Shown here in pieces: positions 33,638-61,845 of a stretch of 64,000 nucleotides of DNA. The notes beneath the pieces were generated by a model, which saw nothing but the letters and a program-made list of their open reading frames with translations, was not told the DNA's origin and made no database searches. Positions within the stretch are counted from its first letter, which is position 1, and each line of letters starts with the position of its first letter. This stretch comes from Candidatus Hydrogenedentota bacterium (GTDB taxonomy: Bacteria > Hydrogenedentota > Hydrogenedentia > Hydrogenedentales > SLHB01), in the NCBI GenBank assembly GCA_052033955.1, contig JBPOJD010000003.1, forward strand, positions 23,128 to 87,127. The letters run 5' to 3'. The position numbers were made by a program, and so were the translations under genes.

Positions 33638-33641
33638 TGCC

Positions 33642-39155: not shown

Positions 39156-39174
39156 GGCGTGTCCCCGTGTACTG

Positions 39175-41807: not shown

Positions 41808-41812
41808 TACAG

Positions 41813-42892: not shown

Positions 42893-42958
42893 CCCGGCGC
42901 TGGGGGGCGGGTCAGACGCGCGCTGTGTTCCCCCTGTGCGTGCGTGCGTACCGTTGCC

Positions 42959-45126: not shown

Positions 45127-46664
45127 GTGTAACTCTTCTCCCGCAGGACGGCGAGCACCGGAATCCCGAGCGATTTCTCGAGTTGCTCGCGCGACCGGAC
45201 GGAGCTGTCGAAGTGGTCACGCACAAAGGCCAGGGTAACCGCCAGAAAGAGGGCGGCGATCATGCCGAGGACGATATCGACCGGCTTGTTGGGGCGAACC
45301 GGTGCGGGAAACACCGTGGCCGCCTGCACTACGCTGATGTTCGAGACGCGATCCATATCCATCGCGGTCGAGATGCGCGCCCGCTGAAGGCTGTCGTGAT
45401 AGTCGCGGTAGGCCTTTTCGGCCAGTTGCGCTTCGCGGGCCAGGCCGTCCAGCTCGACTTCGCGCGCCACCAGGGTGGCCAGCATATCCTCGTGCCGCGC
45501 AAGCTGGGCCAGCAACACCTCGTGCCGGGCCTTCTCCGCCTGGGCACGGGTCACCTCGCTGTCGAGTTCGAACTGGAGAGCCTCGCGCCGTTCGTCCAGC
45601 CCGGTCGTGACTTCGGTCAACGTGGCGTTCTCGGCCGCGAGCGAGGCCTCGAGCTGTGCTATCTGTTCACGGACCTGTACCAAGGGGCGATGGCTGTCGG
45701 GGTAGCGGGCCGAAAGGTCGGTTTCCTGGAGGCGCAGATCAGACAGGCGCTCCTTGAGCGAGTCGGCCGCGACGTTGGTCTTGCCGGTTGTGCGCACGAT
45801 TTCGCGGGTCGTGGGGCGGCCCGCCAACGTGTTGCGGAGGGCCGCGGCGCGGGCCTCGTGGGCGGAAGCGGCGGCCGCGGCCAGGTCCGCTTCGGACCGC
45901 GCCGAACTGATGCGCTCGATGAGCGTCGATTTCTCCTGGGCCAGGTCCGCGATGCGGTGCTGAGTGCGGAAGGCCTCGAGCGCGCGTTGCCGGTCGGTGA
46001 GTTCGGCGCCCAGAGCGCCTACCTGCGCCTCGAAGAAGTCCGGCGTGGCCTGGGTCGCATAGACCTCGATATGACGTTTCAGATAGCCCGTCACGATGTA
46101 GTCGAGCGCCTGCCGGGCGATCTCGGGATCGTGCGCCTCATAGGTGGCGCTGATAATGTTGTCGCGCTTGCCGACCTCGGCGGAGAAGCTCCGCATGACC
46201 CGCCGCACGGCCTTGTTCCGCGTCGTGACCGGCGGCAGGATGTTCAGCGCGGCGAGGGTGCCGGCGACCGCACTCTTTGCGTTTCGGACCGCAGCGCCCA
46301 CAGCGCCGGGTTCTTCGGACGACGGGCGACGCCCCAGGATCGTCTCGGGGCCAAGGGAATCGACGAGTCCTTCGGCGAGGTCACGGCTCTGGAGAATGGC
46401 GAGCTCGGAATGAACCTCATTGTCGCGGTTCACGTAGGGGTTGACCGTGGGTCCTGACACGGACGGGTCCATCGCCAGGTTCTCGCGCCCGAGCCGGATG
46501 AGCATATGGGCCTCGGCCTGGTATACCGGCGCGCGCAGACAGGTGACGACGACGACCAGCGCGGTGACGGTCGCGAAGACCACCAGGATCATCCGGCGCC
46601 GGCGAAACAGCACGGCGAGGATGTCCCGGGGAGAAGTGGTTACCGTCCCATTATTTCCAGCCAT
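45123..46664 (-). CDS. Polysaccharide chain-length determinant protein (Wzc N-terminal-type / GumC-EpsF-like, no kinase domain)
   Basis: N-terminal transmembrane helix (ILVVFATVTALVVVVTCL), Wzz domain, long coiled-coil, C-terminal transmembrane helix (IVLGMIAALFLAVTLAFV). The ATG overlaps the stop of the upstream ATPase gene. Confidence 0.75.
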   Translation of the reverse strand: MAGNNGTVTTSPRDILAVLFRRRRMILVVFATVTALVVVVTCLRAPVYQAEAHMLIRLGRENLAMDPSVSGPTVNPYVNRDNEVHSELAILQSRDLAEGLVDSLGPETILGRRPSSEEPGAVGAAVRNAKSAVAGTLAALNILPPVTTRNKAVRRVMRSFSAEVGKRDNIISATYEAHDPEIARQALDYIVTGYLKRHIEVYATQATPDFFEAQVGALGAELTDRQRALEAFRTQHRIADLAQEKSTLIERISSARSEADLAAAAASAHEARAAALRNTLAGRPTTREIVRTTGKTNVAADSLKERLSDLRLQETDLSARYPDSHRPLVQVREQIAQLEASLAAENATLTEVTTGLDERREALQFELDSEVTRAQAEKARHEVLLAQLARHEDMLATLVAREVELDGLAREAQLAEKAYRDYHDSLQRARISTAMDMDRVSNISVVQAATVFPAPVRPNKPVDIVLGMIAALFLAVTLAFVRDHFDSSVRSREQLEKSLGIPVLAVLREKSYT

Positions 46665-46677
46665 GGCAAACGTCCTC

Positions 46678-47487
46678 TTAAGGCACGGTTATGGGCCACT
46701 GTGTGTCAATGGTTACGTTGCGGGACTCGGACCGCGACTCGTTGGCGACCTCGCTGAAGGTGTAGTGAAGATTGCGCGGGACGATGCGGTTGATGTACTG
46801 CTCGACCCACTGGTTGACCCGGTCGATGCCGGTGCGCGGCACGTACACAATGTCATAGGGTTCGAGAAAGAATGCCTCGCTCTGCGGCGATCGCATTGGC
46901 TTGGCGAGATCGATGGCCATCGCGTATTGCTGGTCGCCCTCGCGCCGCAGGACCACGACGTTGGACATCTGGGCGCTTTCCTTGAGATGACCGCCAGCCT
47001 GCATGATCGCCTGGAGCGGGGTCATGCGGCCTGTCAGCGCGATGACGCCCGGCGCCTGCACCTCGCCGCCGACGTAGACGCGGTGGCTCTCCAGGCCACT
47101 CACGACCACGTTGATCTCCGGATCCTTGAGCTTGTCCCGGTAGGCTTCCAGAAGCTGGTCGCGGAACTGCGCGGGCGTGCGTCCCTCGGCATGTTGCTCG
47201 CCCACCAGCGGCAGCGACAGCTTGCCGTCCGGGCGGATGGCCTGATTCTGATTGAGTTCTGGCCAGTGGATGAACTGGATCTCGAGCACGTCGCCGGCGC
47301 GCAGCAGCAGCGCGTCCTGGGTCGCCGGACCGTCCGTGTGGGCACTCTCGATGGTGCGCGGCAACGACGTGCTGGCGCATCCACCGGCGAGTGCCGCCAC
47401 GGCCATCAGAAGACCCAGGACCGCAGTGCACACCGGGGCGTACCGCCGCCCTGAGCAGCCCAAGGATGAAGCAGTAATTGGATTCAT
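46678..47487 (-). CDS. Polysaccharide export outer-membrane lipoprotein (Wza-like; Poly_export + SLBB)
   Basis: Lipobox LAGGC after the signal peptide. DVLEIQFIHWPELNQNQAIRPDGKLSLPLVGEQHAEGRTPAQFRDQLLEAYRDKLKDPEINVVVSG is the Poly_export domain. The ATG at 47487 has a GGAGGAA Shine-Dalgarno; the GTG at 47505 is the alternative. Confidence 0.8.
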   Translation of the reverse strand: MNPITASSLGCSGRRYAPVCTAVLGLLMAVAALAGGCASTSLPRTIESAHTDGPATQDALLLRAGDVLEIQFIHWPELNQNQAIRPDGKLSLPLVGEQHAEGRTPAQFRDQLLEAYRDKLKDPEINVVVSGLESHRVYVGGEVQAPGVIALTGRMTPLQAIMQAGGHLKESAQMSNVVVLRREGDQQYAMAIDLAKPMRSPQSEAFFLEPYDIVYVPRTGIDRVNQWVEQYINRIVPRNLHYTFSEVANESRSESRNVTIDTQWPITVP

Positions 47488-47586
47488 GTCCAGCGATTCC
47501 TCCACGCTTGCCGTCTGCCGGTTGCGTTGCCGGGTGGGGGGGCTTCCGATTCACCGTCCCGCCCGCGTCGACGCGCGCCGGGCTGT

Positions 47587-47608
47587 GCAAGAGCAAGCGG
47601 TGTGCCGG
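47587..47608 (-). promoter_or_regulatory. Candidate sigma-54 (-24/-12) promoter for the wza-led EPS operon
   Basis: The minus-strand sequence cCGGCACaccgcTTGCtcttgca has GG at -24 and GC at -12 with the canonical 5-nt spacing between GGCAC and TTGC. It lies about 95-115 nt upstream of the wza start codon and immediately downstream of a sigma-54-dependent activator gene. Confidence 0.45.
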
Positions 47609-47908: not shown

Positions 47909-49300
47909 CTACGCGCAACGGAAGGGCACGGTCTCGTCAAGGTGATGTTTGGCGATGCGGCGCCGGAGGGCGCTGTAGCTGATGCCGAGGTTCGAGGCGG
48001 CCTGGCGCTGGTTCCACCGGCACTCGACGAGGGCGGCGAGAATGGTGCTGCGTTCGATGGCCTCGAGCTTGTCGTCGTGGGGGCCGGTCTCCGGAGCGGC
48101 CACGGCGGGAGCAACGGTTTGCAGGACCGGCTCGATGTCGCCCGTGAGGGCGTAGCGTGCCACGAGTGCTTCCAGCTCGCGGACATTCCCCGGCCATTGG
48201 TAGCGGATGAAGTGCGGGACGACCTCGGGCGGCAGCCCGGTGTGCGTGAACCCGCGCTTGGCCGCGCAGGTCTGTAGAAAATGCTCACACAGCAGCGGGA
48301 TGTCGTCGACGCGGTCGCGCAGCGCGGGCAGGGTGATGCTGAACTGGCGCAAGCGGTAGAACAGGTCCGGCCGGAAGGCGCCGGTCTCGATCATGTGCTC
48401 GAGGGGCGAGCTGGTCGCGGCGATGATGCGGCCGTCAAACAGCGTGGTTCCCTTTCCTCCGACCCGCACGAACTGCTTGTGCTCGATCACCTCAAGGAGC
48501 TTCGACTGCATCGAGGGGGACATGAGCCCGATCTCGTCGAGAAAGATGGTGCCGCCCTCGGCCAGCTCGAAGCGGCCCGGCTTCTGCGACACCGCGCCGG
48601 TGAAGGCGCCCTTCTCGTAGCCGAACAACTCGGACTCGAGCAAGGTGTCGGGGATGGTGGGGCAGTTGATCTTCACGAAGTTGCCCGTTGCGGCCCGGGG
48701 AGACAGCGCGTGGATCAGGCGGGCGACCACGTCCTTGCCGGTGCCGCTCTCGCCCCGGATCAGGACCGTCATGTCCGACGGGGCGACCTGGGCGACGAGG
48801 TCCAGCACCCGCTTGACGCACGGTGTGGCCCCGACGAAGGCAGGCAACACCTGATCCCAGTCAGTCGAGGGGGCCTGTACGGGCACGGTTCTCCTCTGGT
48901 GTCCGTTCAGATGCACAGCGGCCGTCTGACACTCGATGGCGCGGGTCGTGGACGCCGGGAGCCGGCCGAGGTCGTCCGGGCGAATGAGAAATTCGTAGAC
49001 GGCAGCGCCCAGGCGCTCGCGGAGAGTGGTGATGCCGGGTTCGGGTGCAGTGACAATCAGTTTCGCGCGGCACGGCGGACAGGTCAGTCGTTCAACCAGT
49101 TGGATGCTGGACTCGTCGATGTGCTCAATGTCGATCACCGCCACGTCAAAGCCGTCGCGGGATACGAGGGCCATAACGTCATACTCGGACTCGCCAGGGG
49201 TGATTGCGCATCCGGTCTCGTGCAGGCACCACACGAGGGCCTTGCGCCACCCCTCGGTTTCAGACCAGACCAGCACGTTCCCCTTCCGCCTGGTGTTCAT
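47909..49300 (-). CDS. Sigma-54-dependent response regulator (NtrC family; resembles PEP-CTERM-locus regulator PrsR)
   Basis: N-terminal receiver-like domain (NVLVWSETEGWRKAL...DVAVIDIEH). Central AAA+ sigma-54 activator domain (GESGTGKDVVARLIH...ESELFGYEKGAFTGA with the GAFTGA motif...GGTIFLDEIG). C-terminal Fis-type HTH (AASNLGISYSALRRRIAKH). ATG at 49300. Confidence 0.85.
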   Translation of the reverse strand: MNTRRKGNVLVWSETEGWRKALVWCLHETGCAITPGESEYDVMALVSRDGFDVAVIDIEHIDESSIQLVERLTCPPCRAKLIVTAPEPGITTLRERLGAAVYEFLIRPDDLGRLPASTTRAIECQTAAVHLNGHQRRTVPVQAPSTDWDQVLPAFVGATPCVKRVLDLVAQVAPSDMTVLIRGESGTGKDVVARLIHALSPRAATGNFVKINCPTIPDTLLESELFGYEKGAFTGAVSQKPGRFELAEGGTIFLDEIGLMSPSMQSKLLEVIEHKQFVRVGGKGTTLFDGRIIAATSSPLEHMIETGAFRPDLFYRLRQFSITLPALRDRVDDIPLLCEHFLQTCAAKRGFTHTGLPPEVVPHFIRYQWPGNVRELEALVARYALTGDIEPVLQTVAPAVAAPETGPHDDKLEAIERSTILAALVECRWNQRQAASNLGISYSALRRRIAKHHLDETVPFRCA

Positions 49301-49582
49301 CTCGACCTCCCCTTCTTTCTCACATGCAGGGTCTTTTTCACTTTTCGCTCCTATATCAAAATACCCGCAACCATCGCCATCGCCTATCGGGACGCGGCGC
49401 ATTATCGGGTCAGGGGAACCCGGATAACGCGAAAGCGGCCGATCAGGTACACTGTGGTGGGGCTCAGACCGCTCGAGCCGTCCAACCACCTTCACGCGCC
49501 GCTCTGAGCCCCCCGAGATGCGGCGCGTTTCCGGCTACAGGCCGGGTGGGAGACCTCCACCGTGTTTCCCGGAGTGAGGCCA

Positions 49583-51250
49583 ATGCGTCGTAGCGCGTCG
49601 CGCGCCGTCGGCCCGGTATCCCTGTTTCCCCTCGCGGCGGCGCTGGCGGCGGTGTTGGCGGGTCTCGGGATTGCCTTGGCCGCAGACGCCGCCACGTACT
49701 ACGTCGACGGGGCCACGGGGCGCAACACCAACAACGGCCTGAGCGCCGGTACCGCCTGGCGGACGATCCAGAAGGCGGCCACCACGGTGACCAGCGGGAG
49801 CACGGTGCTGGTGGCGCCGGGCCAGTATCCCGAGCGCGTGACCATGTCCCGGTCGGGCGCGGCCGGTGCGCCGATCGTCTTTCAGGCCATGGGACCCGGG
49901 ACACAGTGCTACGGCTTCACAGTCGAGGGGTCGGTCATCGTGCGCTACGTCATCGTGGACGGATTCGAGATCACGATGCCACGAAGCAGCACGTGGGATG
50001 TATGGGGCGCCGGAAGCGGGGTGGCGCTCGTCCATACCCAGTACTGCGAGGTGCGAAACAACTGGATCCACCACACCTTGCGCGAAGGCGTCCTGGTGCA
50101 CACCCGCGGGGCGGCGGACGGATACAACAGCAGCTTCAATGTGGTCCGCGGGAACCGCATCGAGTACGCGGGGACCTATGCGGGCATCACGGTCAACGGC
50201 GCGTCGCAGCTCATCGAGAACAACGACATCAGTCACACCATCCAGCACCCGCTCTATCCCATCCTCAGCAGCGCGGGCGGCCCGGATGCCGACGGCATCA
50301 AGTTTTCGGGGCGGGACCACGTGTTTCGCGGCAACCGGATTCACAGCCTGAGCGCCAACGACCCGGGGAATGTGGATGCGCACATCGACGCCTTCCAGAC
50401 CCTGGGCCCGGCGTACAACATCCTCATCGAGGCCAACGTCATTGACCTGCCGCCGAGCGATTCCCATGGTCAGGCGGCCATGATCAGCCAGATGGTGCAG
50501 CCTACGCGCGACCTGACCTTCCGTTACAACGTGATCTGCGCCTACACGGGCTTGAACATCTGGGGCATCCACGACCAGACGCGCGAGGTGGTTCCGATCA
50601 GCGGGATACGCATCTTCAACAATACCTTCTACGGCATGCAGGCCTACGAGATCGAGCTGCACGACTGTCCGTCGGCCGTGGTGAAGAACAACATGATGTC
50701 GGCGACCGGACGCTACATCTGGTTCAACTACCCGACGGATATTGGCTACAACGGCGTCCGCCGCCGCAGCATGGCACGTCCCAACGACGTCGTTGTCACC
50801 GATGCGCGGTTTGTGGATGCATCCGCACGCAACTTCCGGCTGCTCGCCGACAGCCCGCTGATCGACGCGGGCGTCAACGTGGGATTGGCCGAGGACTTCG
50901 ACGGCACGCCGGTTCCGCAGGGAAATGGGGTCGACATTGGAGCTTTCGAGTTTGACCTGCGGAGCACCAATGGAGGTGGTGACGACGGCGGGGGCGAGGC
51001 AGATCCCGACGACGACGGGGACGGCCTGTCCAACGCGCGGGAACTCGAGCTCGGCACCGACCCGAACAACCCCGATACCGATGGTGACGGGATCCCGGAC
51101 GGCGTCGAGGTGGCGCTCGGGCTCGATCCGCTCGACCCGGGCGACCCCGCGCTTCTGATTGTGCGCGGATGGCCGTTCTTCTTGATAGCGGGTCTGTTGG
51201 CGCTGGTGTCCCGGCGCGCGTGGCGGCCCGTCGCGCGGCGGCAACCCTGA
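49583..51250 (+). CDS. Secreted right-handed beta-helix protein (paralog of the modules in 24260..28693) with TSP3-like motifs and a C-terminal transmembrane helix plus Arg-rich tail
   Basis: ATG at 49583 after a GGAGTGAGG Shine-Dalgarno. Signal peptide [36 protein letters not shown]. The beta-helix module ([56 protein letters not shown]...) is about 60 percent identical to the modules in the giant protein. The C-terminus reads ...[82 protein letters not shown]. Confidence 0.8.
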
Positions 51251-51333
51251 ATCAGGGGACGGCTTGGTTTTTGTGCTTGTCTTTGTGGCGGCGGGTCCCC
51301 GATACTCTGTGGAACTACCGGAAAGGGAATGCC

Positions 51334-53916
51334 ATGCCGCGCACGCCTCTCAATGACGGTCCCCGGTCGCCGCTGTTCAGCCCCATACCCCTTGCCGGCA
51401 CGACTTCGCTGAAGGCGCTGTCCCGCCAAGGCACGTCGGAGGCGATGCGCGCCAACGCATGCCACGCGCCCGAGGGACCATGCACGGCGTGGGGCATCCC
51501 CTTCGACGTGGGGCGGGTCATCCTGGCGTCGGACCGGCCCGTGGTGGAGACGTGGCGAGGCTTCAAGGCGCCGTGGCTGGTCTTCATGCACACGACCGAC
51601 TTTGTGCCACCGGACCGCAACGAGGACGGACTCATTTCGCCGATGCGTGGTGCGGGCCGCTTGGGCGAGTGCGTTGCGGATTACGTCTTCGTGTACGCGG
51701 ACGGCACCGAGGTGCGGGAGAAGATCCTGCGGCGGCGGCAGATCGGCATGCTGATGCGGACGCACTGGGGCGAGGTCTGTTTCGAGGCCGTCGGTCCGCA
51801 GAAGCCGCATCCCGTGCCGTCCCTCACGGACCAGCCGCAGTTCGGGGGAGCGTGGGGCTGGTCGCAGCAGCACATTGCCAATCCGGACTGGAAACCGTGG
51901 ATGAACTGGCTCTGGGCGTGGGAGAACCCGCACCCGCGCAAGCCGATCACCGGGCTCCGTATCGAGCCCAAGGCGCCGCTCGTCATTTCGGCGGTGACAC
52001 TTGGCCGGGTGTCGTCGATGCCGTTGCGCTGGGGATCGCGTCAGAAGGCCCTGTGGCGCCTGCCCAAAGGTGAGCGCTTCGACCCGGCGTATGCCGCGAA
52101 CGGCACCGTGAAGCAACTACAGATCGACCTGGGACAGGTGATCTCCGTGATGCCGAAGTTCGAGTACCCGAATGACACGTGGAAGGATTCCTACAACAAC
52201 CAGGTGCCGGCCGTTCGCGAGGATACGTTCATCGTCGAGTACACCGCCCACCCTGAGGCACGGTTCCACTTCGCCGATGGAACGGCGGTGCCCGTCGAGG
52301 CACTGGGCAGCCGCAAGGCGTTGACACCGGTTGCGCCTGCGACGCGCCGTGTGCGGCTTCGGGTTGTCGAGAAGGGCAGCACCACGCCCGTAGCCGTCAA
52401 GCTGCACGTGCACGGCGAGGCGGGCGAGTACCTGGCGCCCGTTGACCGGCACCGCATCCCGAATCCGAACTGGTTTGAGGACTACGGCGCGGACTTCCTC
52501 AACGAGCGCAACCACTTCTGCACCTATATCCCCGGCGAGACGGTCATCGACCTGCCGCTGGGAACGGTGTACATCGAAGTGAGCAAGGGGTTCGAGATCG
52601 CGCCTATCCGCCGGGTGGTCAAGGTTGGCCCGAACACGAGGAAAATCACGTTCACACTGAAACGGGTGCTGCCGTGGCGGGCGCGCGGCTGGGTGACGGC
52701 GGACACGCATGTGCACTTCCTGTCGCCGCCGACCGCGGGGCTCGAGGGGGCGGGTGAAGACGTCAACGTCGTCAACCTGCTGGCGAGCCAGTGGGGCGAG
52801 CTCATGACGAATGTCGGCGACTTTGACGGCAGGACGACGTTCGGCGCCCGGGAGGCAGGCGGCACGGGCGAGTACCTCGTCCGGGTGAGCACGGAGAACC
52901 GCCAGCATACCCTCGGGCACATTTCGCTGCTAGGCTATAGCGGCCCGATCATCGCGCCGATGTGCGCGGGCGGGGCCGATGAATCCGCGCTGGGCGATCC
53001 AGTCGCGATCCTGCTGACCGAGTGGGCGCAGCAGTGCCGTAAACAGGGGGGTATGGTGGTCATTCCACATTTCCCCAATCCCCGGGCCGAACACGCGGCG
53101 ACAATCGTCACCGGCAACGCCGACGCGATTGAGATGACCTCGTGGGGCTGGCACTACGGCGGTATTGACCCGTATTCGCTGTCGGACTGGTACCGCTATC
53201 TCAACTGCGGCCACTTTATCCCCGCGGTCGGCGGCACGGACAAGATGAGCGCGGACACAAGCGTCGGGACCATCCGCACCTATGCGCGGCTTCCCGAGGG
53301 CCGGGAGTTTACGTACGACGCGTGGATGGACGCGGTGCGTTCGGGCAACACCTTTGTTTCCTATGGACCGCTGGTCGAATTTACCGTAGACGGCCGGTCG
53401 GCGGGGTCACGCATTTCGATGGGCCGCAGCGGGGGCACGGTGGACGTCGAGTGGACGGTTGCGAGCGTGACGGTGCCCCTGTCCCGCGTCGATCTGGTCG
53501 TCAACGGGGAGATCGTCGAAAGCCGGGCCCTCGACCCGCGCGAGGATACGGGGCGCTGCCGGGTGAAGGTCGGGAAGAGTTCGTGGATGGCACTCCTCGT
53601 GCGGGGCCACTATCCAGACAAGCCGGAGATGATTGCCGCGCACACCTCGCCGGTCGTGGTGCCGGTGGAGGGCTCACCGTTCTTTGCGGCGGCCGACGCC
53701 TTGACCATCCTCGAACAGATCGAGGGCGCGATCGCCTTCTTTGACACGATGGCCACGCGGGCGGACGAGACGGCCCGCAAGCGCATGCGGCTCGTGCTCA
53801 CCGGCGCGTACCGCGCCCTGCATAACCGCCTGCACCAGCAGGGCTACGACCACCCGCACACGCACGTCACCGACCACCCCGGCCACCATCGGGCGCGCGG
53901 CCCGCGGCGACGTTGA
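51334..53916 (+). CDS. Large cytoplasmic protein with a C-terminal PHP-type (CehA/McbA-like) metallohydrolase domain
   Basis: WVTADTHVHFLSPP (HxH motif I), GHISLLG, MVVIPHFPNP and GGTDKMS resemble PHP-domain metal ligands. The N-terminal 450 aa or so are of unknown function. ATG at 51334 follows an AAAGGGA Shine-Dalgarno. Assignment is tentative. Confidence 0.5.
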   Translation: MPRTPLNDGPRSPLFSPIPLAGTTSLKALSRQGTSEAMRANACHAPEGPCTAWGIPFDVGRVILASDRPVVETWRGFKAPWLVFMHTTDFVPPDRNEDGLISPMRGAGRLGECVADYVFVYADGTEVREKILRRRQIGMLMRTHWGEVCFEAVGPQKPHPVPSLTDQPQFGGAWGWSQQHIANPDWKPWMNWLWAWENPHPRKPITGLRIEPKAPLVISAVTLGRVSSMPLRWGSRQKALWRLPKGERFDPAYAANGTVKQLQIDLGQVISVMPKFEYPNDTWKDSYNNQVPAVREDTFIVEYTAHPEARFHFADGTAVPVEALGSRKALTPVAPATRRVRLRVVEKGSTTPVAVKLHVHGEAGEYLAPVDRHRIPNPNWFEDYGADFLNERNHFCTYIPGETVIDLPLGTVYIEVSKGFEIAPIRRVVKVGPNTRKITFTLKRVLPWRARGWVTADTHVHFLSPPTAGLEGAGEDVNVVNLLASQWGELMTNVGDFDGRTTFGAREAGGTGEYLVRVSTENRQHTLGHISLLGYSGPIIAPMCAGGADESALGDPVAILLTEWAQQCRKQGGMVVIPHFPNPRAEHAATIVTGNADAIEMTSWGWHYGGIDPYSLSDWYRYLNCGHFIPAVGGTDKMSADTSVGTIRTYARLPEGREFTYDAWMDAVRSGNTFVSYGPLVEFTVDGRSAGSRISMGRSGGTVDVEWTVASVTVPLSRVDLVVNGEIVESRALDPREDTGRCRVKVGKSSWMALLVRGHYPDKPEMIAAHTSPVVVPVEGSPFFAAADALTILEQIEGAIAFFDTMATRADETARKRMRLVLTGAYRALHNRLHQQGYDHPHTHVTDHPGHHRARGPRRR

Positions 53917-54061
53917 CTCCGCGGGCCGCTCACGAGGCACGGCTGGACTGACAAGACTCTCGAAAACGAGGGATGGCTTGTGTATAGTGCTTCGTGGCAG
54001 AGGCTGCCGCGGGGGTGGCTGGGAGTTACTGGGCCGTTGGTTATACTGTGTGGGAACGGGC

Positions 54062-55888
54062 ATGTCCTTAGAGGTAAATGAAACCGTACCAGTGAGGCGC
54101 AAGGGATTCAGCGCCTTTTTCCACGTCGTCGCGTATTTCTTGCCTTCTCTTTATCCTGTCTGGGACAAGATCCTTCTCAAGTTTCTCATCGGCAATTGTA
54201 TGACGTTTCTCGGGGTGTCCGGGGCCATGGTGGCCGGGAAGGTGGTGGACGAAGGCCTTGCCCCGCTCGACATGGACCGCTTTATGTTCTGGATTGGTCT
54301 CGGCGGCCTGATCTCCCTGATAGTAGCCTCGCTGGGCCTCTGCAATACCATCATCGGCGCCTACATCAACGCGGTGCTCGAGGCCCGCTTTCGCTTCTCG
54401 GTATTCGATCACCTCCAGAAGCACTCACTGCGTTTTTTCCAGTCGCGCCCCGTGGGCGAGCACATGTATCGCACCAACGACGACACGATGATGACGGTAC
54501 AGTTCGTTGGCGTGGCGTTTCTCCAGTTGCTTGAACGGCTTCAGACGGTGACCATCGCGCTGGGCGTGATCTTTACGGTAAACGTCTCGGTCGGGCTGAT
54601 TGTGCTGGTCTACATGGTCTTCTATGCCCCGGTCAGTCACATTGCCGCTTCGTTTGTGCGCAACATGCATTTCACCTCGCGCTGGCGCATTCAGCGGTCC
54701 TTCGCCACACTCCAGGAGAACCTTGCGGGCTATCCCGTCGACAAGATGTTCGCTACCGAACGCCGCAATCTGCGCACCTACTACGCCATCCTGTCCGATG
54801 CCACGCGGTACGCGATTCGCTACATGAACTTCAGTTCCATCCTCAACCATTTCATATCGGGTATTGGCGGCAATCTCCTGCGCTCGGTGTTCCTGCATGT
54901 GTCCGGGGTGATGTTCTTCGGGTACCTGGTCATGTCGGATCGCCTGAGCACCGGCGAATACATTTTCATGGGCGGCGTGCTGGTGACCCTGATTGGCCCC
55001 TTCGAGGAACTGATTGCCTCGGTCGCGGGCATGCGTATCTGGGCGGTGCCCGCGGAACGCATGCTCGAAACCCTTGAGGTCAAGCCGGAGATCGAGAATG
55101 TTCCGGCGCCCAAGCGCATCACGGCACCTCAGGGCGTCGTCGAGTTCGAGAACGTCTCGTTCCGCTACGGGCCCGGCATGCCGGACGTGGTGAAGGGACT
55201 GTCCTTCCGCGCAACACCGGGCACGATGACCGCCTTCGTCGGGTTGTCGGGGGCCGGAAAGACGTCGGTGTTCAACCTGCTCATGCGGTTCTATGATCCC
55301 ACCGGCGGGTGCGTGCGCATCGATGGCGAAGATCTTCGCGCGTACGACCTGAAGTCCTATCGCGACCATGTGGGCCTGGTGTTGCAGGAGAGCTACCTGT
55401 TCTCCGCGACGCTGCGCGACAACATTCTCGTCGGTAACCCCCATGCCACGGAAGAGGCCGTGACGGCCGCCCTGCGCCGCGTCGACATGGAGGAATTCGT
55501 GCGGCGGCTGCCGTACGGACTGGATGCGGTCATGTCCGAAGCGGGCAATGTGTCGGTGGGCGACCGTCAGCGCATCAGCATTGCCCGCGCCTTGCTGCGG
55601 GATCCGCAGTTCCTGTACCTGGACGAGCCGACGGCATCGCTCGACCCCGAGACGACCCGCGAAATTGCCAGGCATCTGGATGTGGTGATGGCGGGGCGGA
55701 CGAGCATCGTCATTGCCCACAGCCTGCAACTCATCACCGGCGCGGATCAGATCATCGTGATGGACAAGGGCGTGGCGATTCAGCGCGGCAAACACGCCGA
55801 CTTGCTCGAGCAACCGGGATTCTACCGTGAGATGTGGTACGCCGAACTGGAGAAGAACCGGCGTGACGTTCAGGCGAGGGGAAACTAG
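54062..55888 (+). CDS. ABC transporter permease/ATP-binding protein (exporter type; MsbA/HlyB-like half transporter)
   Basis: Six-transmembrane domain, then an NBD with GLSGAGKTSVFNLLMRFYDP (Walker A), LSVGDRQRISIARALL (ABC signature variant) and FLYLDEPTASLD (Walker B). ATG at 54062. No N-terminal C39 peptidase domain. Confidence 0.85.
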   Translation: MSLEVNETVPVRRKGFSAFFHVVAYFLPSLYPVWDKILLKFLIGNCMTFLGVSGAMVAGKVVDEGLAPLDMDRFMFWIGLGGLISLIVASLGLCNTIIGAYINAVLEARFRFSVFDHLQKHSLRFFQSRPVGEHMYRTNDDTMMTVQFVGVAFLQLLERLQTVTIALGVIFTVNVSVGLIVLVYMVFYAPVSHIAASFVRNMHFTSRWRIQRSFATLQENLAGYPVDKMFATERRNLRTYYAILSDATRYAIRYMNFSSILNHFISGIGGNLLRSVFLHVSGVMFFGYLVMSDRLSTGEYIFMGGVLVTLIGPFEELIASVAGMRIWAVPAERMLETLEVKPEIENVPAPKRITAPQGVVEFENVSFRYGPGMPDVVKGLSFRATPGTMTAFVGLSGAGKTSVFNLLMRFYDPTGGCVRIDGEDLRAYDLKSYRDHVGLVLQESYLFSATLRDNILVGNPHATEEAVTAALRRVDMEEFVRRLPYGLDAVMSEAGNVSVGDRQRISIARALLRDPQFLYLDEPTASLDPETTREIARHLDVVMAGRTSIVIAHSLQLITGADQIIVMDKGVAIQRGKHADLLEQPGFYREMWYAELEKNRRDVQARGN

Positions 55889-55891
55889 ACG

Positions 55892-57724
55892 ATGATCCAG
55901 CCGGTCATTCTGGATTCAGTCGCACGGCCCGACGAGAGCCGTTTCACAGGCTGGCAGCAGCTCATCCTGATCCTGCGCGTGCTGCGCTATGCCCGGCTGG
56001 TGTGGGATAAAGTCCTGCTGCGACTGGTCATCTCGCAGATCAACGCGTTCGTTGCCGCGGCGCCGGCGGTGCTGGGCATCCGCATCATCGACGAGGCCTT
56101 CGCGCAACGCGACATGGGCTTGTTTCTTGAACTGGCGCTCATCGCGGGCGCGGCGCTCATCATGGTCAAACTGCTCGATTTCACCGCCGACGTGATGGCC
56201 ATCTACGGGATTGGCCGCGTGGGCCTGCAATTGCGCACGGATGTCGTCGAGCACATTCTGCACCTGCCGCCGAGCTTCTACGAGTCCCGGCCGGTAGGTG
56301 AGCACATGTACCGTTGTGTATATGACACAAGCGACGTGCAGATGGTCGTCAATGATCTGCTGCCGCGCGCCATCATGAATCTCCAGAAGATGGTGGCCCT
56401 GACCATTGTGCTGGCGTCGATCAAGCTGTGGCTGCTTCCGATCTGCGCCGTGTACCTGGTGCTTTTCTTCCTTGTGAAACACACCATCGCCACGAGGTTG
56501 CGTGTTGTGCTGCGCCGCGAGCGCCGCGCCGCGCAGCGTGTCGACGCGCTCAGCCGGGAGCTGTTCACGGCCTTCAAGCTCGTCAAGGGGTACAACCTCG
56601 AGCGCATGGCGCGCCGCTGGTACTGGGCCCAGATGTCGATCTACGTCCGTCAGGTGTTCCGCCGCAACGCCTGGACGGCGCTGGACATCACCCTCGGTCA
56701 TCCCAGCTTGGGGTTCGGGTTTCCGTTGCTGATCTTTCTGTTGAATCTCATTGCGGGCAGAATGCTCATAGCCGGCGAGATGGGGCTGACCATCGGCGAG
56801 TACACCGCCATCGCGTTGGTGGTCGGTCAGTTGGCCCTGCCCATCCAGGACGCGATCGCGCTGTTCCAGGAAACGCGCCAGCGCCTGGTCCCGGTGGAAC
56901 GTCTCATGGACACGATGGAGATACAGTCGGACATCGTCGATGCGCCGGGCGCCGTGGAACTGAATGCCCCCGCCGGCCACATCGAGGTGCGCAACGTGAC
57001 CTTCGCCTACGGCGACGAGCCGGTGCTGCGCAACGTATCCATCGAAGCGAAGCCGGGCGAGAAGGTCGCCATCGTTGGTCCCATCGGCGCGGGGAAGAGC
57101 ACGCTGCTGCGGCTGCTGTTGCGGCTGGCGGATCCGCAGGACGGCGCCATCTGCATCGACGGCATCGACATTCGCGCGATCGGGCAGCGCAGCCTGCGCC
57201 GGGCCTTCGGCACGGTGCCGCAAGGGGCGATCCTGTTTTCCGAGACGCTCGAGGACAACATTCGGCGCGCGGTCCCGGGAGCGCGGCGCGCGCGGGTCGA
57301 GGATGCCGCGCGCATGGCGCGAGTGGATGAGTTTGTGGACGAGCTGCCCGAGGGGTATGACACCCAGATTCAGGCCGGGACGAATCTTTCCGGCGGCCAG
57401 CGGCAGCGCGTGTGTCTGGCGAGGGCGCTCATCAAGGACGCACCCATGCTGCTGCTTGACGAGGCGACTTCGGCCCTCGACCCTGTTTCCGAGCAGGAGG
57501 TGGTCGCCGCGGTGGATGCCCGGTATGCCGGGCGCACGCGTGTGATTGTTGCCCACAACCTGCTCAACGCGCGCACCGCGGACCGGGTGTATGTGCTCGA
57601 TCAGGGCGAAGTGGTCGAGTCGGGCACGCACGCCGAACTCATGGCCCGGGGGGGCAAGTACTGCGAGTTGTGGGAAAGCGAGCCGCGGCGCGAACCGGAT
57701 GCCGAGCAGGCCAAGACTGTCTAG
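55892..57724 (+). CDS. ABC transporter permease/ATP-binding protein (second half-transporter, probable heterodimer partner)
   Basis: Transmembrane domain, then an NBD with GPIGAGKSTLLRLLLRL (Walker A), LSGGQRQRVCLARAL (signature) and LLLDEATSALD (Walker B). Begins 4 nt after the upstream ABC gene. Confidence 0.85.
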   Translation: MIQPVILDSVARPDESRFTGWQQLILILRVLRYARLVWDKVLLRLVISQINAFVAAAPAVLGIRIIDEAFAQRDMGLFLELALIAGAALIMVKLLDFTADVMAIYGIGRVGLQLRTDVVEHILHLPPSFYESRPVGEHMYRCVYDTSDVQMVVNDLLPRAIMNLQKMVALTIVLASIKLWLLPICAVYLVLFFLVKHTIATRLRVVLRRERRAAQRVDALSRELFTAFKLVKGYNLERMARRWYWAQMSIYVRQVFRRNAWTALDITLGHPSLGFGFPLLIFLLNLIAGRMLIAGEMGLTIGEYTAIALVVGQLALPIQDAIALFQETRQRLVPVERLMDTMEIQSDIVDAPGAVELNAPAGHIEVRNVTFAYGDEPVLRNVSIEAKPGEKVAIVGPIGAGKSTLLRLLLRLADPQDGAICIDGIDIRAIGQRSLRRAFGTVPQGAILFSETLEDNIRRAVPGARRARVEDAARMARVDEFVDELPEGYDTQIQAGTNLSGGQRQRVCLARALIKDAPMLLLDEATSALDPVSEQEVVAAVDARYAGRTRVIVAHNLLNARTADRVYVLDQGEVVESGTHAELMARGGKYCELWESEPRREPDAEQAKTV

Positions 57725-57741
57725 AGGAGACGACGTCCGCC

Positions 57742-58587
57742 ATGACAAGACGTACCGACGAAGAGATGGCCGTGCGGCCCATGGGTTTCCGGCGGTTCTT
57801 CAACCAGCGCTTTGTGCAGGCTGTGGAAGTCTTTGGCTATCTCGTGTGCGCCATGATCGCCCTTGGGCTGGCCTACGCGGTCTGGGCGAAGGTGGATATT
57901 GAGGTGCAGCTTGAGGGCGTTCTCATCGCGCCATCCGCGGCGATCCACGCGCCCGGCGACCTCGCGGTCACGGGGTGGGCCGTGGAGGCGGGCCAGCCGA
58001 CCGAAGCGGGTGCATTGGTGTACGCCTATGTCTCCGACCCTGCGCAGCGCGACACCGCGCGAGCCCGCACGTTGATCGCCGGCGCGATGGAGGCGCTGAA
58101 AGGCAACCATTCGGCCACGCAGGCCGCGGCCGAACACTGTGCGCGGGCGCTGGAAGCACTGCCTGCCGTCGAGGGGGAAGTGCGGGTGACATCGCCCACG
58201 GCGGGGATCGCCGTGCCGTCGCCGTTGGCGGCCCTGGGCGCGACCGTGCCGCAAGACACGGTTGTTGCGCGGGTAGTCGACGTGACGCGGCTCCAACTCG
58301 AGGGCTCGCTGACCGGCAATGCGGCGGCGCAGGTGAAAGAGGGAAATCCGGTCCGTGTCACGGATCCGTTGTCCGGGCAGGATCTGGTGGGCGAGGTGGC
58401 GCGCGTGGAGCGTGAGAACGTGACCGCAAACCTCGTGCTGGCCTTTGCGCAGGTCCCCAAGGAGACGGCCGAGGCCTATGAGCACGACGTGCTGAACCCC
58501 GATCCCGCCTCACCGTCCGCGCGCGTCCGGGCCCGTATCGTGGTGGGCCAGCAGTCGCTGTTCAAGAGTGTGTTTGGCCGCCGCTGA
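57742..58587 (+). CDS. HlyD-family periplasmic adaptor / membrane fusion protein (short form)
   Basis: ATG at 57742 after an AGGAGA Shine-Dalgarno. N-terminal transmembrane anchor (FGYLVCAMIALGLAYAVWA), then a beta-rich region with biotinyl/lipoyl-like hairpin motifs (VEGEVRVTSPTAGIAV...GNPVRVTDPLSGQDLVGEV). Confidence 0.55.
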   Translation: MTRRTDEEMAVRPMGFRRFFNQRFVQAVEVFGYLVCAMIALGLAYAVWAKVDIEVQLEGVLIAPSAAIHAPGDLAVTGWAVEAGQPTEAGALVYAYVSDPAQRDTARARTLIAGAMEALKGNHSATQAAAEHCARALEALPAVEGEVRVTSPTAGIAVPSPLAALGATVPQDTVVARVVDVTRLQLEGSLTGNAAAQVKEGNPVRVTDPLSGQDLVGEVARVERENVTANLVLAFAQVPKETAEAYEHDVLNPDPASPSARVRARIVVGQQSLFKSVFGRR

Positions 58588-58667
58588 CGCCTTCCCGCGC
58601 GTTTGGCGGGGTAGAACACCCCCCCGGACACTCATGGTGACCGGGGGAGCGATGCAGGGCAGGTCCT

Positions 58668-58820
58668 ATGAGACGGGTACCTGCTTGAGGAGGCCCGCAA
58701 GCAGACTGTCAGCGTCCACACACTTCGTGTTGGAGCGGACGATGAGCCAGCCGCAGACCGTATCCTCTTGTGCCTTGGCGGGCATCTTCTCAGACGACAA
58801 CGTGTTCAGATGCTTCATCA
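58668..58820 (-). CDS. Unlisted small ORF (50 aa) with a strong Shine-Dalgarno: MKHLNTLSSEKMPAKAQEDTVCGWLIVRSNTKCVDADSLLAGLLKQVPVS
   Basis: Found by reading the minus strand. GGGAGG lies 6 nt upstream of the ATG at 58820. The ORF lies between the end of the ABC/HlyD operon and the terminator of the downstream beta-helix gene. Two Cys in a CxW...KC context. Absent from the supplied ORF track, presumably because it is under the length cut-off. Confidence 0.3.
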
Positions 58821-58887
58821 CTTGCCTCCCTCTATCGTTGCGGTTTCGACTACCTGTGGGGTTAACCCGCCGCCAGCAGCGGGTATT

Positions 58888-58931
58888 CCCAGAATAAGGA
58901 AGGGGCTGTCCCTCGTGTGAAGGACAGCCCC
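58888..58931 (-). terminator. Intrinsic (Rho-independent) terminator after the 939-aa beta-helix protein gene
   Basis: On the minus strand a perfect 10-bp stem GGGGCTGTCC / GGACAGCCCC with a 10-nt loop is followed by TTCCTTATTCT, about 25 nt downstream of the stop codon at 58957-58959. Confidence 0.55.
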
Positions 58932-58956
58932 GAACGCGCCGTTTCAGGCGGTTTGC

Positions 58957-61620
58957 TCAGTTGGAGCGCAGCTTTCGCGATCGCCTGCTGAACACGGCGA
59001 GGGCCGCGAGCACGAGCGCCACCACGCTCAGGTCGGTCCACGGCGCGCCGTGGCTGCTCCCGGCATGGCAGCCGACCGCAGTGTTGCCATCGCCGCCGCC
59101 GCGGATGAAGGGCGTCACGTTGACCGGTCCGATGATTTTCTTGTTGATCATTCCTCTGGTGTAGACGCCCCAGTCATTGTTCTGGGCCAGCATCTCAATG
59201 CCGGTATTGTTGATGATGAAATTGCCGCCAATATTGCGGAACACATTGTTGCCGCTCTCACCGACCCTCGTGCTTCCCAGGAAAGGCACGGCTGCGGCGG
59301 TACTTTTTTCGAGTGGCGGCTGCACAAAGATCGCATCGCTCCGAATAGCCTCAAAGGTGTTGTCGCGCAGTTCGACTTCCGTGTCAATGGCATGTACGCC
59401 AAAGTGAAGCCGCCGGATCTGGCAGTCTTCAATGAGCGTGTCGAAGGACCCCTCGCCGTCAATCAGCAGACCTATCGAAAACAGATTGTCGTTGCCCACA
59501 AAGTCGACACCGGCGACGTGCATGTTTACATTGTGGATGCGCAAGAGCGTCGTAACGAAGCCGTGGACGCCGGGAAGGCGCACGGTGCAGTCATAGAGAC
59601 CGCCGTTGTCGGCGCCGTACAAGACGAAGCTCTCCGCCCCCATCTGCCCGACGCCACTGATGACCGTGGCGCCCTGTCCGGCGCCCGCCAGCGTCACATC
59701 AGCGCCGAAGACGACGCTTTCCGGGTAGATGCCGGCGCCCACGCTGACGTTCACGGGGCGGGCGCCCAGTCCGTAGATGCCCCCGGCGGTATAGATGCGG
59801 GCGGCCGTCATGGCGCGCGTGATGGTTCTCCATGGACTGTCGGCGGCCCCGAGGTTCTGGTAATCGTCGCCTTGCAGTTTCACAAACCGTTCCTGCGGCG
59901 GATCCGCCGGGTCGGTGGGATCGATATCATAAATCACCTCGTATCCATTGGGCAGTCCGTCGCCATCGGCGTCATCCAAGGCATCATGCATGGTCGGATC
60001 CAGGCCGTAGGCCACCTCGACGCCATCGCGCATGCCGTCGCGGTCCGTGTCCCAACTCAGGGGATCGGTGCCGTACACCATGATCTCGTCGTGATTCGTC
60101 AGTCCGTCGCCATCGTCATCGCGATCGGCATCCTCCGCGTCATAGGGGTTCAGCCCGGCGGCCACCTCCAACAGGTCCGGAATGCCGTCGCCGTCCGTGT
60201 CGTCCTCACCGGTAATGCCGTCGCCGTTTTCGCCCTGCAAGAACTCATAGGCACCCATGTCCGGTGCGGCGCCGCTGGGCTGCCAGATCCCGTTCAACGA
60301 CGGACCCGGTACCCACAGCGCCTCGGCGGCGTCGATGCTCGGCGAGTCTGCGGTCAGGTTGTAGTCGCCGTTGGCGGGGTCCGCGAAGAGCGGGTCGGCG
60401 GTGATGTTGCCCAAGCCGGGCAGGGACGACAGGAGCGCGGAATAGGTGACGGTCCGGGAGGTGGCCGTGATCGGTTCGCGCACAATGCTGTTCTGAACAG
60501 TGACGTTTTTCGCGAGAATGCCGCCGTTCACATTATCCGCCACCGTGCAATGCAGCAACTGCACGGCGCCCGAGTCGGTGGCATGGACGGTCCGTCCTGT
60601 GTTGCCGGTTACCTGACAGTTGGCCATGATCAACGAACCTACATGCAATCCGGTGAGCGTGCCGCTTGCCGTGGACGTGTTGCCAGAAATGATCGTTCGC
60701 TCGATGACGACGGCACTGTTGTACGCCACGGCCCGCGTCGTGTTGTCGAGAAAGACACAGTCCGTGATGCGCAGCGGCGCGAAATTTGTCCTGACCGTCC
60801 CGTTGGTGGACGACGTGCGCTCGAACCGGCTGCCCTGTATCTGGCCACGGCTATGCAATAAATAGACGGCTGTTCCGGTCAGGTCCTCGAACACGCAGTC
60901 GTCGACCAAGAGGTACGCCACCGCGGATGCCTCTATGCCGGCCACTGCGTCTGCGTTAGAACCGTTCCCCCGGAAGGAACATCCACGGAACGTGGCAACC
61001 CGGCTTCTGTCCAGTTGCACCGGCGCACGCCCCGTGAAGTGGTGGAACTCGCAGTTGATGAAGACAGGGGCACAGTTGGCCGAGGCGTCTACAGCCTCGC
61101 TCTCCGGACCACTGCCGCGGAAGCGGCAGTTGCGCACATGCGGGGAGGCTTCACGGATGTAAAGTGCAACATTCCAGCTGTTGCTCGTCGGCCCCGCCCC
61201 CTGGATCGTGAACCCGTCCAGTACGTTGCTTGCGGCCCTGATCACAACCGAGGCAGGGTAGCCCTTGCGGGCCGTGGAACCGTCGATGATGGTCACGTTG
61301 GCGTCCCAGTCGCGTTCTTCGCGCAGCGTCTCGGTCCCCGAGAATCCGCCGTAGAGGTCGACGTTGCTGCGCATGATGAGCGCCCCATCCGGGTCGGTAC
61401 GCAGTTCGTCATAGGTGCCCGCGGCCACCCAGACCTCACTGAACGTGGCCGGGTCGGCCGCGTCGATGGCATCCTGGACCGCGCGGAACGCCGTGGCCCA
61501 CGAGGCCCCGTCCTGCACGCCGGACGTGTTGGCGCGGTCAACGTAGATGACGGCGGCCGGAGCGGACAGGGCGGTCAGTATGGCTGCGCAGACAACACCT
61601 GATAGTACGAGTACACGCAT
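58957..61620 (-). CDS. Secreted right-handed parallel beta-helix repeat protein (887 aa) with TSP3-like Ca-binding motifs and a C-terminal transmembrane helix plus Arg/Lys-rich tail
   Basis: ATG at 61620 after a GGAAAGGA Shine-Dalgarno. Signal peptide MRVLVLSGVVCAAILTALSAPAA. Many NxT/NxS-rich beta-helix rungs. Asp-rich DxDxDGxxD motifs occur mid-protein. The C-terminus reads ...GGGDGNTAVGCHAGSSHGAPWTDLSVVALVLAALAVFSRRSRKLRSN. Confidence 0.8.
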   Translation of the reverse strand: MRVLVLSGVVCAAILTALSAPAAVIYVDRANTSGVQDGASWATAFRAVQDAIDAADPATFSEVWVAAGTYDELRTDPDGALIMRSNVDLYGGFSGTETLREERDWDANVTIIDGSTARKGYPASVVIRAASNVLDGFTIQGAGPTSNSWNVALYIREASPHVRNCRFRGSGPESEAVDASANCAPVFINCEFHHFTGRAPVQLDRSRVATFRGCSFRGNGSNADAVAGIEASAVAYLLVDDCVFEDLTGTAVYLLHSRGQIQGSRFERTSSTNGTVRTNFAPLRITDCVFLDNTTRAVAYNSAVVIERTIISGNTSTASGTLTGLHVGSLIMANCQVTGNTGRTVHATDSGAVQLLHCTVADNVNGGILAKNVTVQNSIVREPITATSRTVTYSALLSSLPGLGNITADPLFADPANGDYNLTADSPSIDAAEALWVPGPSLNGIWQPSGAAPDMGAYEFLQGENGDGITGEDDTDGDGIPDLLEVAAGLNPYDAEDADRDDDGDGLTNHDEIMVYGTDPLSWDTDRDGMRDGVEVAYGLDPTMHDALDDADGDGLPNGYEVIYDIDPTDPADPPQERFVKLQGDDYQNLGAADSPWRTITRAMTAARIYTAGGIYGLGARPVNVSVGAGIYPESVVFGADVTLAGAGQGATVISGVGQMGAESFVLYGADNGGLYDCTVRLPGVHGFVTTLLRIHNVNMHVAGVDFVGNDNLFSIGLLIDGEGSFDTLIEDCQIRRLHFGVHAIDTEVELRDNTFEAIRSDAIFVQPPLEKSTAAAVPFLGSTRVGESGNNVFRNIGGNFIINNTGIEMLAQNNDWGVYTRGMINKKIIGPVNVTPFIRGGGDGNTAVGCHAGSSHGAPWTDLSVVALVLAALAVFSRRSRKLRSN

Positions 61621-61845
61621 TGGGTGGTTTCCTTTCCCCCGTAGAGACCTGCCGTTCCCCGCCCCCATGGCGCTGACGGCAAAGCCGGCACATGAACCTG
61701 CGCCGATTGGACCAGATGGTATCACGCGGGGTTTCAGCCAAGAAAGTTTCGCCGCCGCGGGATGGCCAACGAGCAATAGTCTCGCCGCGGCGGGTTGTTC
61801 ACTACAAGGCCTGACGCCGTCTACCCGTCAGGCTGGGAGGGACAT

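Follow-up and report, generated by a model that had tools for sequence, protein, structure and literature searches.

Two secreted beta-helix proteins of a Candidatus Hydrogenedentota polysaccharide locus end in different C-terminal tails, one of which belongs to a recurrent Cys-containing domain that behaves genomically like a sorting signal

We analysed 64,000 nucleotides of the Candidatus Hydrogenedentota bacterium assembly GCA_052033955.1 (contig JBPOJD010000003.1, positions 23,128 to 87,127 of the forward strand; hereafter the window), in which the C-termini of two proteins, A and B, each consist of a hydrophobic helix and, after it, an Arg-rich or otherwise basic cluster. The gene for protein A lies at 49583..51250 on the plus strand and encodes 555 residues; that for protein B lies at 58957..61620 on the minus strand and encodes 887 residues. 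Both open reading frames (ORFs) are coding, with a G+C content at third codon positions (GC3) of 0.85 for A and 0.79 for B against about 0.65 overall (window G+C about 65%). Public protein collections contain B as an identical 887-residue entry with the same boundaries (P0122) and an orthologue of A of 552 residues with 96% identity and an unchanged start (P0001). Both N-termini are of the Sec type, with putative cleavage, as read from the sequence, after ...GIALA in A and between ...TALS and APAAVIYVD in B. The P-E-P motif is absent from both tails, and PEP-CTERM models gave no match at E<=1 with the whole proteins or at E<=10 with the tails alone. A preliminary description of this DNA as encoding two secreted proteins with signal peptides, each with a transmembrane (TM) helix and an Arg-rich tail lacking PEP, is thus borne out, including the tails as quoted there.

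The same description regarded A and B as paralogous in fold, which did not hold. Both proteins match the Pfam families DUF1565, Beta_helix and TSP3_bac; nevertheless, their BLASTP similarity of 29% is confined to the choice-of-anchor-Q/TSP3 stretch, and on this ground we rejected the two as beta-helix paralogues. Within that stretch, the NCBIfam choice-of-anchor Q model (NF041518, cutoff 25) scored 42.8 bits on residues 416-457 of A, which is a member, and 21.6 bits on residues 419-460 of B, which falls under the cutoff and is therefore not a member.

Protein B is a beta-helix/TSP3 surface protein whose features all lie on the minus strand. Its signal peptide (about residues 1-22, MRVLVLSGVVCAAILTALSAPA; 61555..61620) is followed by the point at which the mature part of the homologues also starts, at the same '(V/W)YVD'. 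An N-terminal right-handed beta-helix (about residues 22-461; 60238..61557; Pfam Beta_helix 78.7 bits; model strands 23-422), which includes the choice-of-anchor-Q-like stretch, precedes a TSP3 calcium-binding repeat region (about residues 473-575; 59896..60204) with four TSP3_bac stretches and invariant Asp columns in the alignment. A second beta-helix-like domain (about residues 580-840; 59101..59883; model strands 577-838) ends in DWGVY...VxxxPF(I/L) and leads to the tripartite tail at residues 848-887 (58960..59079). The tail consists of G850-C851, an 11-residue spacer, T862-D863, a helix at 864-877 and the cluster RRSRKLR, which directly follows a hydrophobic run of 14 residues; residues 846-887 read NTAVGCHAGSSHGAPWTDLSVVALVLAALAVFSRRSRKLRSN. 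In the AlphaFold (AF2) model of B, with a mean predicted local distance difference test score (pLDDT) of 74, the tail helix spans residues 863-885, starting at D863, and the Cys is placed in a disordered juxtamembrane stretch. The informative motif is G850-C851 ... T862-D863 and not 'HGAP', which had been proposed earlier.

Gene B was nearly absent, start included, from a relative with 96% identity represented by a contig of Logan SRR29340344 (L001:10340-10500, compared with about 59090..61750 of the window). This contig retains only a tail-coding remnant of B (...GNCAVGCHGGSSHGAPWADLSVVALVLAALAVFSRRSRKLRSN*) with a stop upstream, and the junction falls within a short CGCCGCCGC-type repeat. 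Since the gene is missing from so close a relative, B is strain-variable.

An exhaustive HMMER search with the whole of B recovered homologues aligned over query residues 473-884 at 36-46% identity, which had been missed by a word-index search with the C-terminal 307 residues of B that returned nothing. In 30 of the 150 best representatives of the exhaustive search, the C-terminus is formed by a hydrophobic helix with basic residues after it; some 20 of these 30 carry Cys ... [GS]D just ahead of the helix. The homologous domain ends in DWG.Y...VDF.PF.G and is followed by a variable Gly/Glu-rich linker and then by either dockerin repeats or the Cys tail, the dockerin ending being found in P0132, P0166, P0188, P0238 and P0266. 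In 35-residue windows from the bodies of the same proteins, the frequency of 'GC' was only 3%.

Because these first tails had all been retrieved through homology to the body of B, we scanned a metagenome collection independently with a degenerate DNA pattern that described the helix start only, GD(L/F)F(L/F)xG(L/F)(A/S)(L/F)xx(L/F), and left the Cys unspecified. The scan yielded 120 matches, mostly chance occurrences inside unrelated frames. Thirteen of them lay within 25 codons of the stop of a long ORF, and an upstream GC(x)C together with an Arg/Lys cluster was present in 12 of these 13; the atypical thirteenth (L053) had a lone Cys and no GC.

Subsequently, a profile made from 28 tails, B not among them, scored 32.7-32.8 bits on B (E 1.8e-9 among the 532 ORFs of the window), the runner-up ORF reaching 5.5 bits. 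Across 284 proteins and 7514 locus ORFs, all matches of at least 21.7 bits ended 0-6 residues from the C-terminus; the remaining scores among the 284 proteins were at most 3.6 bits, and three internal matches of 18-20 bits among the locus ORFs lay in frames brought in by the DNA pattern itself. A word-index search with a 19-tail alignment gave nothing at E<=10, the length of the model being insufficient for 5.8 billion database sequences. Of 29 tails, all contained the Cys, 25 had G-C, 28 the boundary Asp and 24 a Gly before the Asp. The spacer from Cys to helix measured 5-22 residues (median 16), and the hydrophobic run of 14-18 residues was followed by 1-6 basic residues (Arg/Lys). The tail of B therefore belongs to a recurrent tripartite C-terminal domain composed of G-C(xC), a spacer of typically 10-22 residues, [G]D, a Leu-rich helix of 14-18 residues and an Arg cluster.

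The domain occurs repeatedly within single genomes and on proteins of different kinds. GCA_016278185.1 has four tail carriers on four contigs, all of them among the 13 near-stop matches of the DNA pattern, and the Candidatus Hydrogenedens metagenome-assembled genome (MAG) GCA_012522755.1 has three consecutive carrier genes and a fourth carrier elsewhere. The three consecutive genes (L128:2510-14659 and L129:271-12420) encode PMP-repeat/beta-helix proteins of 746, 1455 and 1466-1479 residues with near-identical Cys tails, the consensus being GCNC.KSK...LKKNLSDWLL.G.S...LL.FAA.RR. The named carriers are Hydrogenedentota MAGs, and the placement of the tail in Hydrogenedentota rests on three such carriers. 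By Pfam, the passengers comprise WD40, BACON, PASTA with Ig-like, PASTA with EF-hand, and PMP-repeat beta-helix proteins; the WD40 (L036), BACON (L055), PASTA plus Ig (L056) and PASTA plus EF-hand (L115, L057) carriers share no BLAST similarity with B or with the beta-helix carriers, and the bodies of several carriers show none among themselves. A hydropathy heuristic placed a hydrophobic segment at the N-terminus of 16 of 20 carriers, the rest appearing 5'-truncated; L030 and L036 also have one.

Several side observations concern the same tails. In a canonical subfamily (L115:1924-3447, L057:3-644, L030:106-2898 and P0209), one or two EF-hand loops of the form DxNGDGxLxxxEL stand ahead of the Cys motif, and the tail may consequently be part of a slightly larger module. 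Homologues of the TSP3 region of B (P0246, P0248, P0251 and P0268) end in a Gly-run, (S/T)xxW, a Leu-rich helix and Arg, which by eye resembles the GlyGly-CTERM signal of rhombosortase; the presence of such endings on TSP3-rich giants implies that B-type passengers swap anchors. Moreover, the 59% orthologue of A (L004) and P0144 (on L007, 40% identity), which is the closest of the tailed homologues of B, come from the same JGI metagenome, 3300037484, and may derive from one related organism. In this metagenome, the B-type tail keeps G-C and G-D, and the A-type tail shares nothing with that of A.

Haft described the hallmarks of tripartite sorting signals as a C-terminal position, several copies per genome, at least three conserved signature residues and a helix (bioRxiv 10.1101/2023.06.07.544157, section 5), together with a basic cluster of 2-5 residues, N-terminal signal peptides, carriers that have nothing else in common, and homologues in which another anchor takes the place of the tail or the tail is lacking (bioRxiv 10.1101/2023.06.07.544157). 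The B-type tail displays these in position, copy number (in GCA_016278185.1 and GCA_012522755.1), signature (B itself having G-C and T-D), helix with basic cluster, signal peptides, unrelated carriers and alternative anchors. We take it as shown that there is such a domain, that B is one of its members and that its genomic behaviour is that of a sorting signal. In our limited literature collection, no link between Hydrogenedentota and sorting signals was found.

We then compared the tails with known sorting-signal models, using 5 + 8 + 10 tails against NCBIfam release 20 and 7 tails against Pfam. No NCBIfam or Pfam model covered the tail, and only sub-threshold, composition-level matches were obtained. 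The sole model match of the B tail was TIGR03901 (MYXO-CTERM) at 13.4-13.6 bits (cutoff 20, E about 0.07), running from G850-C851 to the Arg cluster with the Cys aligned; this model gave no match on 18 other family tails even at E<=10, and none on A. MYXO-CTERM, the signal of the myxosortases MrtX, MrtC and MrtP, resembles the B-type tail in its tripartite form, its invariant Cys that is often GCxC, its helix and Arg cluster, and its many carriers per genome, which include large secreted beta-helix/TSP3-type surface proteins. The B-type tail differs in its longer spacer, in an almost invariant Asp, mostly as G-D, where the helix begins, and in the upstream EF-hand of the canonical subfamily. 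JDVT-CTERM, the proposed CPBP-processed signal of MrtJ in Pseudomonadota (NF033191/NF033192), likewise has an invariant Cys, an Asp-containing dipeptide and a Leu-rich helix. It has, however, a single Cys, with a DP exactly nine residues later inside the helix, and each genome has one carrier, next to the gene of the protease. In the B-type tail the Cys is often multiple and the Asp stands where the helix starts, 10-22 residues downstream of the Cys; a genome has several carriers, and no protease is adjacent to them. NF033191 did not match the tails, and with a Cys-to-Asp distance of 5-22 residues the B-type tail is not a member of that family. By these comparisons, the tail of B is a variant of the Cys-type sorting tails that has apparently not been described before.

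Protein A presents a different picture. All its features lie on the plus strand: a putative catalytic right-handed beta-helix (about residues 36-458; 49688..50956) that includes the choice-of-anchor Q stretch, TSP3 repeats (about residues 476-519; 51008..51139; TSP3_bac 53.1 bits in two stretches) and the tail at residues 520-555 (51140..51247), in which GDP precedes a hydrophobic stretch (523-542) with an embedded Arg528 and an Arg-rich end. The AF2 model, built from 80 homologues, has a mean pLDDT of 88.5, rising to 95-99 over residues 40-460, and shows a right-handed beta-helix. The best Foldseek matches in the PDB were GH136 lacto-N-biosidases, the PL9 pectate lyase Pel9A, PL6 alginate/chondroitin lyases and the Vibrio matrix lyase RbmB (E 1e-12 to 1e-11, 12-19% identity), and Pfam Pel9A-like_beta_helix was among the precomputed matches.

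The gene for A is divergent from that of a sigma-54-dependent response regulator (47909..49495, minus strand; PEP_resp_reg 277 bits, with generic NtrC/NifA-type matches). At the locus of the 59% orthologue P0002 (L004), this synteny is conserved: the gene stands divergent from the sigma-54 activator, which is followed by Poly_export, GNVR, ATPase, Bac_transf, GFO and flippase genes. Because the regulator and export genes are kept at only 59% identity of A, we regard A as part of the exopolysaccharide (EPS) locus, and its modelled fold predicts a polysaccharide-active beta-helix enzyme, lyase- or glycosidase-like, of a sigma-54-regulated EPS locus. EPS operons include membrane-tethered or periplasmic EPS-processing enzymes such as PslG, AlgL and BcsZ, and RbmB is a secreted matrix lyase. 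Like these, A combines a polysaccharide-active fold with a position beside EPS export genes and is predicted to face the periplasm or the exterior; unlike them, it has a DUF1565/Pel9A-like beta-helix, an anchoring helix at the C-terminus rather than the N-terminus, and TSP3 repeats.

The C-terminal extension of A varies among homologues with 50-61% identity in the enzyme domain. TSP3 repeats and a helix are found in A, P0001 and P0002, Ig domains and a helix in P0003, and a short linker and a helix in P0006; endings without a helix consist of Ig domains (P0004), a dockerin (P0009) or nothing (P0005, P0008). The helix-bearing tails have no common motif, and even the 96% orthologue P0001 has an inserted Leu within the tail helix and an altered basic cluster. 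Furthermore, the A tail contains no Cys, matched no sorting-signal model at E<=10 and scored 0.5 bits on the Cys-tail profile. The tail of A is most likely an ordinary stop-transfer anchor and not a sorting signal. Such an anchor would tether the enzyme to the cytoplasmic membrane, on its outer face and close to the Wzx/Wzy/Wza machinery, and the helix with its basic end is one of several interchangeable C-terminal 'anchors' in this enzyme family.

The surroundings of A include further genes. A secreted paralogue of 1477 residues (24260..28693, minus strand) has two copies of the putative catalytic module of A, separated and followed by Ig-like/HYR domains, and lacks a TM tail; by BLASTP the two copies are 65% identical over residues 7-457 of A and 64% over residues 34-457. 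The window thereby encodes three copies of the enzyme module. Directly downstream of A, 51334..53916 (plus strand) encodes an 860-residue protein with no Pfam match and no signal peptide, which is kept after A in the 96% relative (L001) and absent after the 59% orthologue (L004). Between A and B, 53741..58587 (plus strand) contains two fused ABC exporter genes (ABC_membrane plus ABC_tran) and an HlyD-like adaptor, kept in the close relative.

On the other side of the regulator gene lies a large polysaccharide-synthesis cluster of the Wzx/Wzy type, at the end of which the region with A and B is situated. This cluster for EPS biosynthesis and export (29480..47505, minus strand) encodes a Wza-like exporter, a chain-length determinant, an ATPase, a priming transferase, a flippase, a Wzy-like polymerase and sugar-modifying enzymes. 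A perfect sigma-54 -24/-12 consensus, TGGCACATGCGTTGCT, lies inside it (36678..36693, minus strand), and a site with one mismatch lies just upstream of the Wza-like exporter gene (47592..47607, minus strand), a position consistent with regulation through the adjacent sigma-54 activator. The number of sigma-54 sites in the window was not above chance, and a promoter search found no site upstream of A or B. Beyond the cluster, 19911..24104 (minus strand) encodes a secreted protein of 1397 residues with polysaccharide deacetylase/DUF2334 and Ig-like domains that ends abruptly in TSP3-like repeats, with no helix in any frame downstream of this end.

The tails of A and B are therefore two different devices and not one system; a single signal common to both was rejected on the basis of the profile score of A, its lack of Cys and the variability of its tail among orthologues. 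Where the preliminary description had proposed non-canonical sorting signals for both proteins, the proposal survives for B, whose 32.7-bit tail belongs to a multi-copy modular Cys domain, and is not supported for A. We consider it fairly probable that the pair is explained by a Cys-type sorting tail on B and a plain anchor on A.

By analogy with known Cys-type signals, a pathway can be outlined for B, in which the Cys modification, the cleavage and the identity of the enzyme are all drawn from those systems. B would be exported by its Sec signal peptide and first held in the cytoplasmic membrane by the C-terminal helix, leaving the RRSRKLR cluster on the cytoplasmic side. The juxtamembrane Cys would then be modified, probably by lipidation, a dedicated intramembrane protease would remove the helix, and mature B would be passed to the cell surface. 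All four known Cys-type tripartite signals pair with CPBP/Rce1-type proteases, not exosortases (bioRxiv 10.1101/2023.06.07.544157; PMC11980579), and for MrtX and MYXO-CTERM, Cys-dependent cleavage and surface display have been shown experimentally (PMC11980579). The protease acting on the B tail would most likely be a glutamic endopeptidase of the CPBP/Rce1 type, with its gene elsewhere in the genome. In its widest form, this interpretation takes the tail as the mark of an undescribed Hydrogenedentota-like sorting system with its own intramembrane sortase, from either a new subfamily of CPBP proteases or a class of enzyme not yet recognised; the system would send diverse adhesin-, enzyme- and lectin-like cargo to the surface by way of Cys modification and C-terminal cleavage, B being one strain-variable cargo; we judge the case for this wider form to be evenly balanced.

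Several observations weigh against the explanation by a sorting tail on B and a plain anchor on A. Every sizeable ORF of the window was scanned with Pfam or NCBIfam, and no exosortase, rhombosortase, rhomboid or CPBP candidate was found in these 64 kb; the ORFs with at least four TM or hydrophobic segments are all ABC transporters, flippases or Wzy-like proteins, and 37749..39395, tried as an exosortase, was rejected as Wzy_C. Nor was a processing enzyme, the co-occurrence of which is a further hallmark of tripartite signals, found in the flanks of seven carriers, where sequence inspection for a CPBP-like motif or a multi-TM protease revealed only a DedA-like protein, a SulP transporter, ABC transporters and flippases. 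The lack of an enzyme next to carriers is expected if one enzyme serves many substrates; it equally leaves room for the possibility that the tail is a simple anchor. B is, in addition, the only tail carrier in the window, and its deletion in the 96% relative makes it dispensable. The Cys-to-helix spacer, with its median of 16 residues, is longer than in MYXO-CTERM, and the boundary Asp occupies the position that Glu has in PEP, so that a CPBP-like or an exosortase-like enzyme may be involved. Finally, an acidic residue stands beside the hydrophobic stretch in all four TM-tailed members of the A family (GD in A, YD several residues upstream in P0002, PE in P0003 and AD in P0006), and a weakly defined signal in A may therefore exist.

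The foremost alternative is that both tails are permanent C-terminal anchors of type I bitopic proteins, the Cys stretch, EF-hand and Asp forming a structural, metal-binding or disulfide-linked stalk that is never cleaved. Consistent with such an arrangement, no cognate protease accompanies the tails in the window or in any flank, the Cys-to-helix spacer is long and variable, the EF-hand loops just upstream in canonical members suggest a folded calcium-binding module, and stop-transfer needs only a hydrophobic stretch and positive-inside charge. For plain anchors, however, it is unusual to retain an invariant Cys and Asp on passengers of unrelated kinds, or to exchange places with dockerins and other anchors in close homologues, and a run of 14-18 residues is short for a stable helix in the bacterial inner membrane. 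Moreover, processing has been proposed or shown for all four known tripartite Cys tails, and large adhesin-like beta-helix, BACON and PASTA/Ig passengers fit the cell surface better than the inner membrane of a diderm. Permanent anchoring of both proteins thus appears unlikely.

We also considered whether the B-type tail could be an exosortase-type signal in which G-D replaces P-E-P, the exosortase being encoded elsewhere and linked to EPS in the manner of XrtA, with the Cys staying on the mature protein and the 'GDP' of A perhaps a degenerate form. PEP-CTERM proteins (TIGR02595) share with the B-type tail a signal peptide, an acidic residue at the helix boundary, in the position of the PEP Glu, a helix and an Arg cluster, and the EPS genes beside A resemble the XrtA set, their best NCBIfam matches being XrtA/PEP-CTERM-system families. 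Every one of these matches nonetheless falls under the curated cutoff (ATPase 242 against 324 bits, chain-length determinant 133 against 279, exporter 90 against 180, regulator 277 against 503 (502.6)), and the window spans the whole EPS cluster without an exosortase. The adjacent 'exosortase-type' EPS locus of the preliminary description accordingly reduces to a resemblance, with no sortase-family gene in the window. Single tails gave weak matches to VPLPA-CTERM (16.8 bits), IPTL-CTERM (13.3), XDP1 (13.0) and VPDSG-CTERM (11.7), which reflect helix and Arg composition only; no tail had a significant PEP-CTERM match. An exosortase-type signal also gives no role to the invariant Cys, which is foreign to PEP-CTERM, and the 0.5 bits of A on the tail profile argue against including its GDP. 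This explanation is accordingly improbable. Least credible of all is that the tail of B is merely a divergent MYXO-CTERM of a myxobacterium-like deltaproteobacterium with a standard myxosortase and nothing new, since the sole model match of the tail and the frequent GCGC-type double Cys of the family, as in MYXO-CTERM, are outweighed by a score well under the cutoff, the failure of all 18 other family tails to match, the near-invariant Asp and longer spacer that are not MYXO-CTERM features, the restriction of the curated family to Myxococcota and Bradymonadales when the named carriers are Hydrogenedentota, and the lack of an identified myxosortase in the window or the carrier flanks.

C-terminal sorting signals determine what bacteria display on their surface, and each new signal has led to a new enzyme, as with sortase, exosortase, archaeosortase, rhombosortase and myxosortase. 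The tail of B offers a further test of the rule that pairs Cys-containing tails with Rce1-like proteases, and it gives a phylogenetic profile that can be used for finding the cognate protease. Telling the true modular signal of B apart from the look-alike anchor of A also matters for the mining of endings that consist of a helix plus Arg. For the Hydrogenedentota, which have almost no experimental biology and whose cell surface is known mainly from genomes, the tail is a marker for the surface proteome of their MAGs, in which its carriers are now listed as 'hypothetical' or 'outer membrane repeat' proteins.

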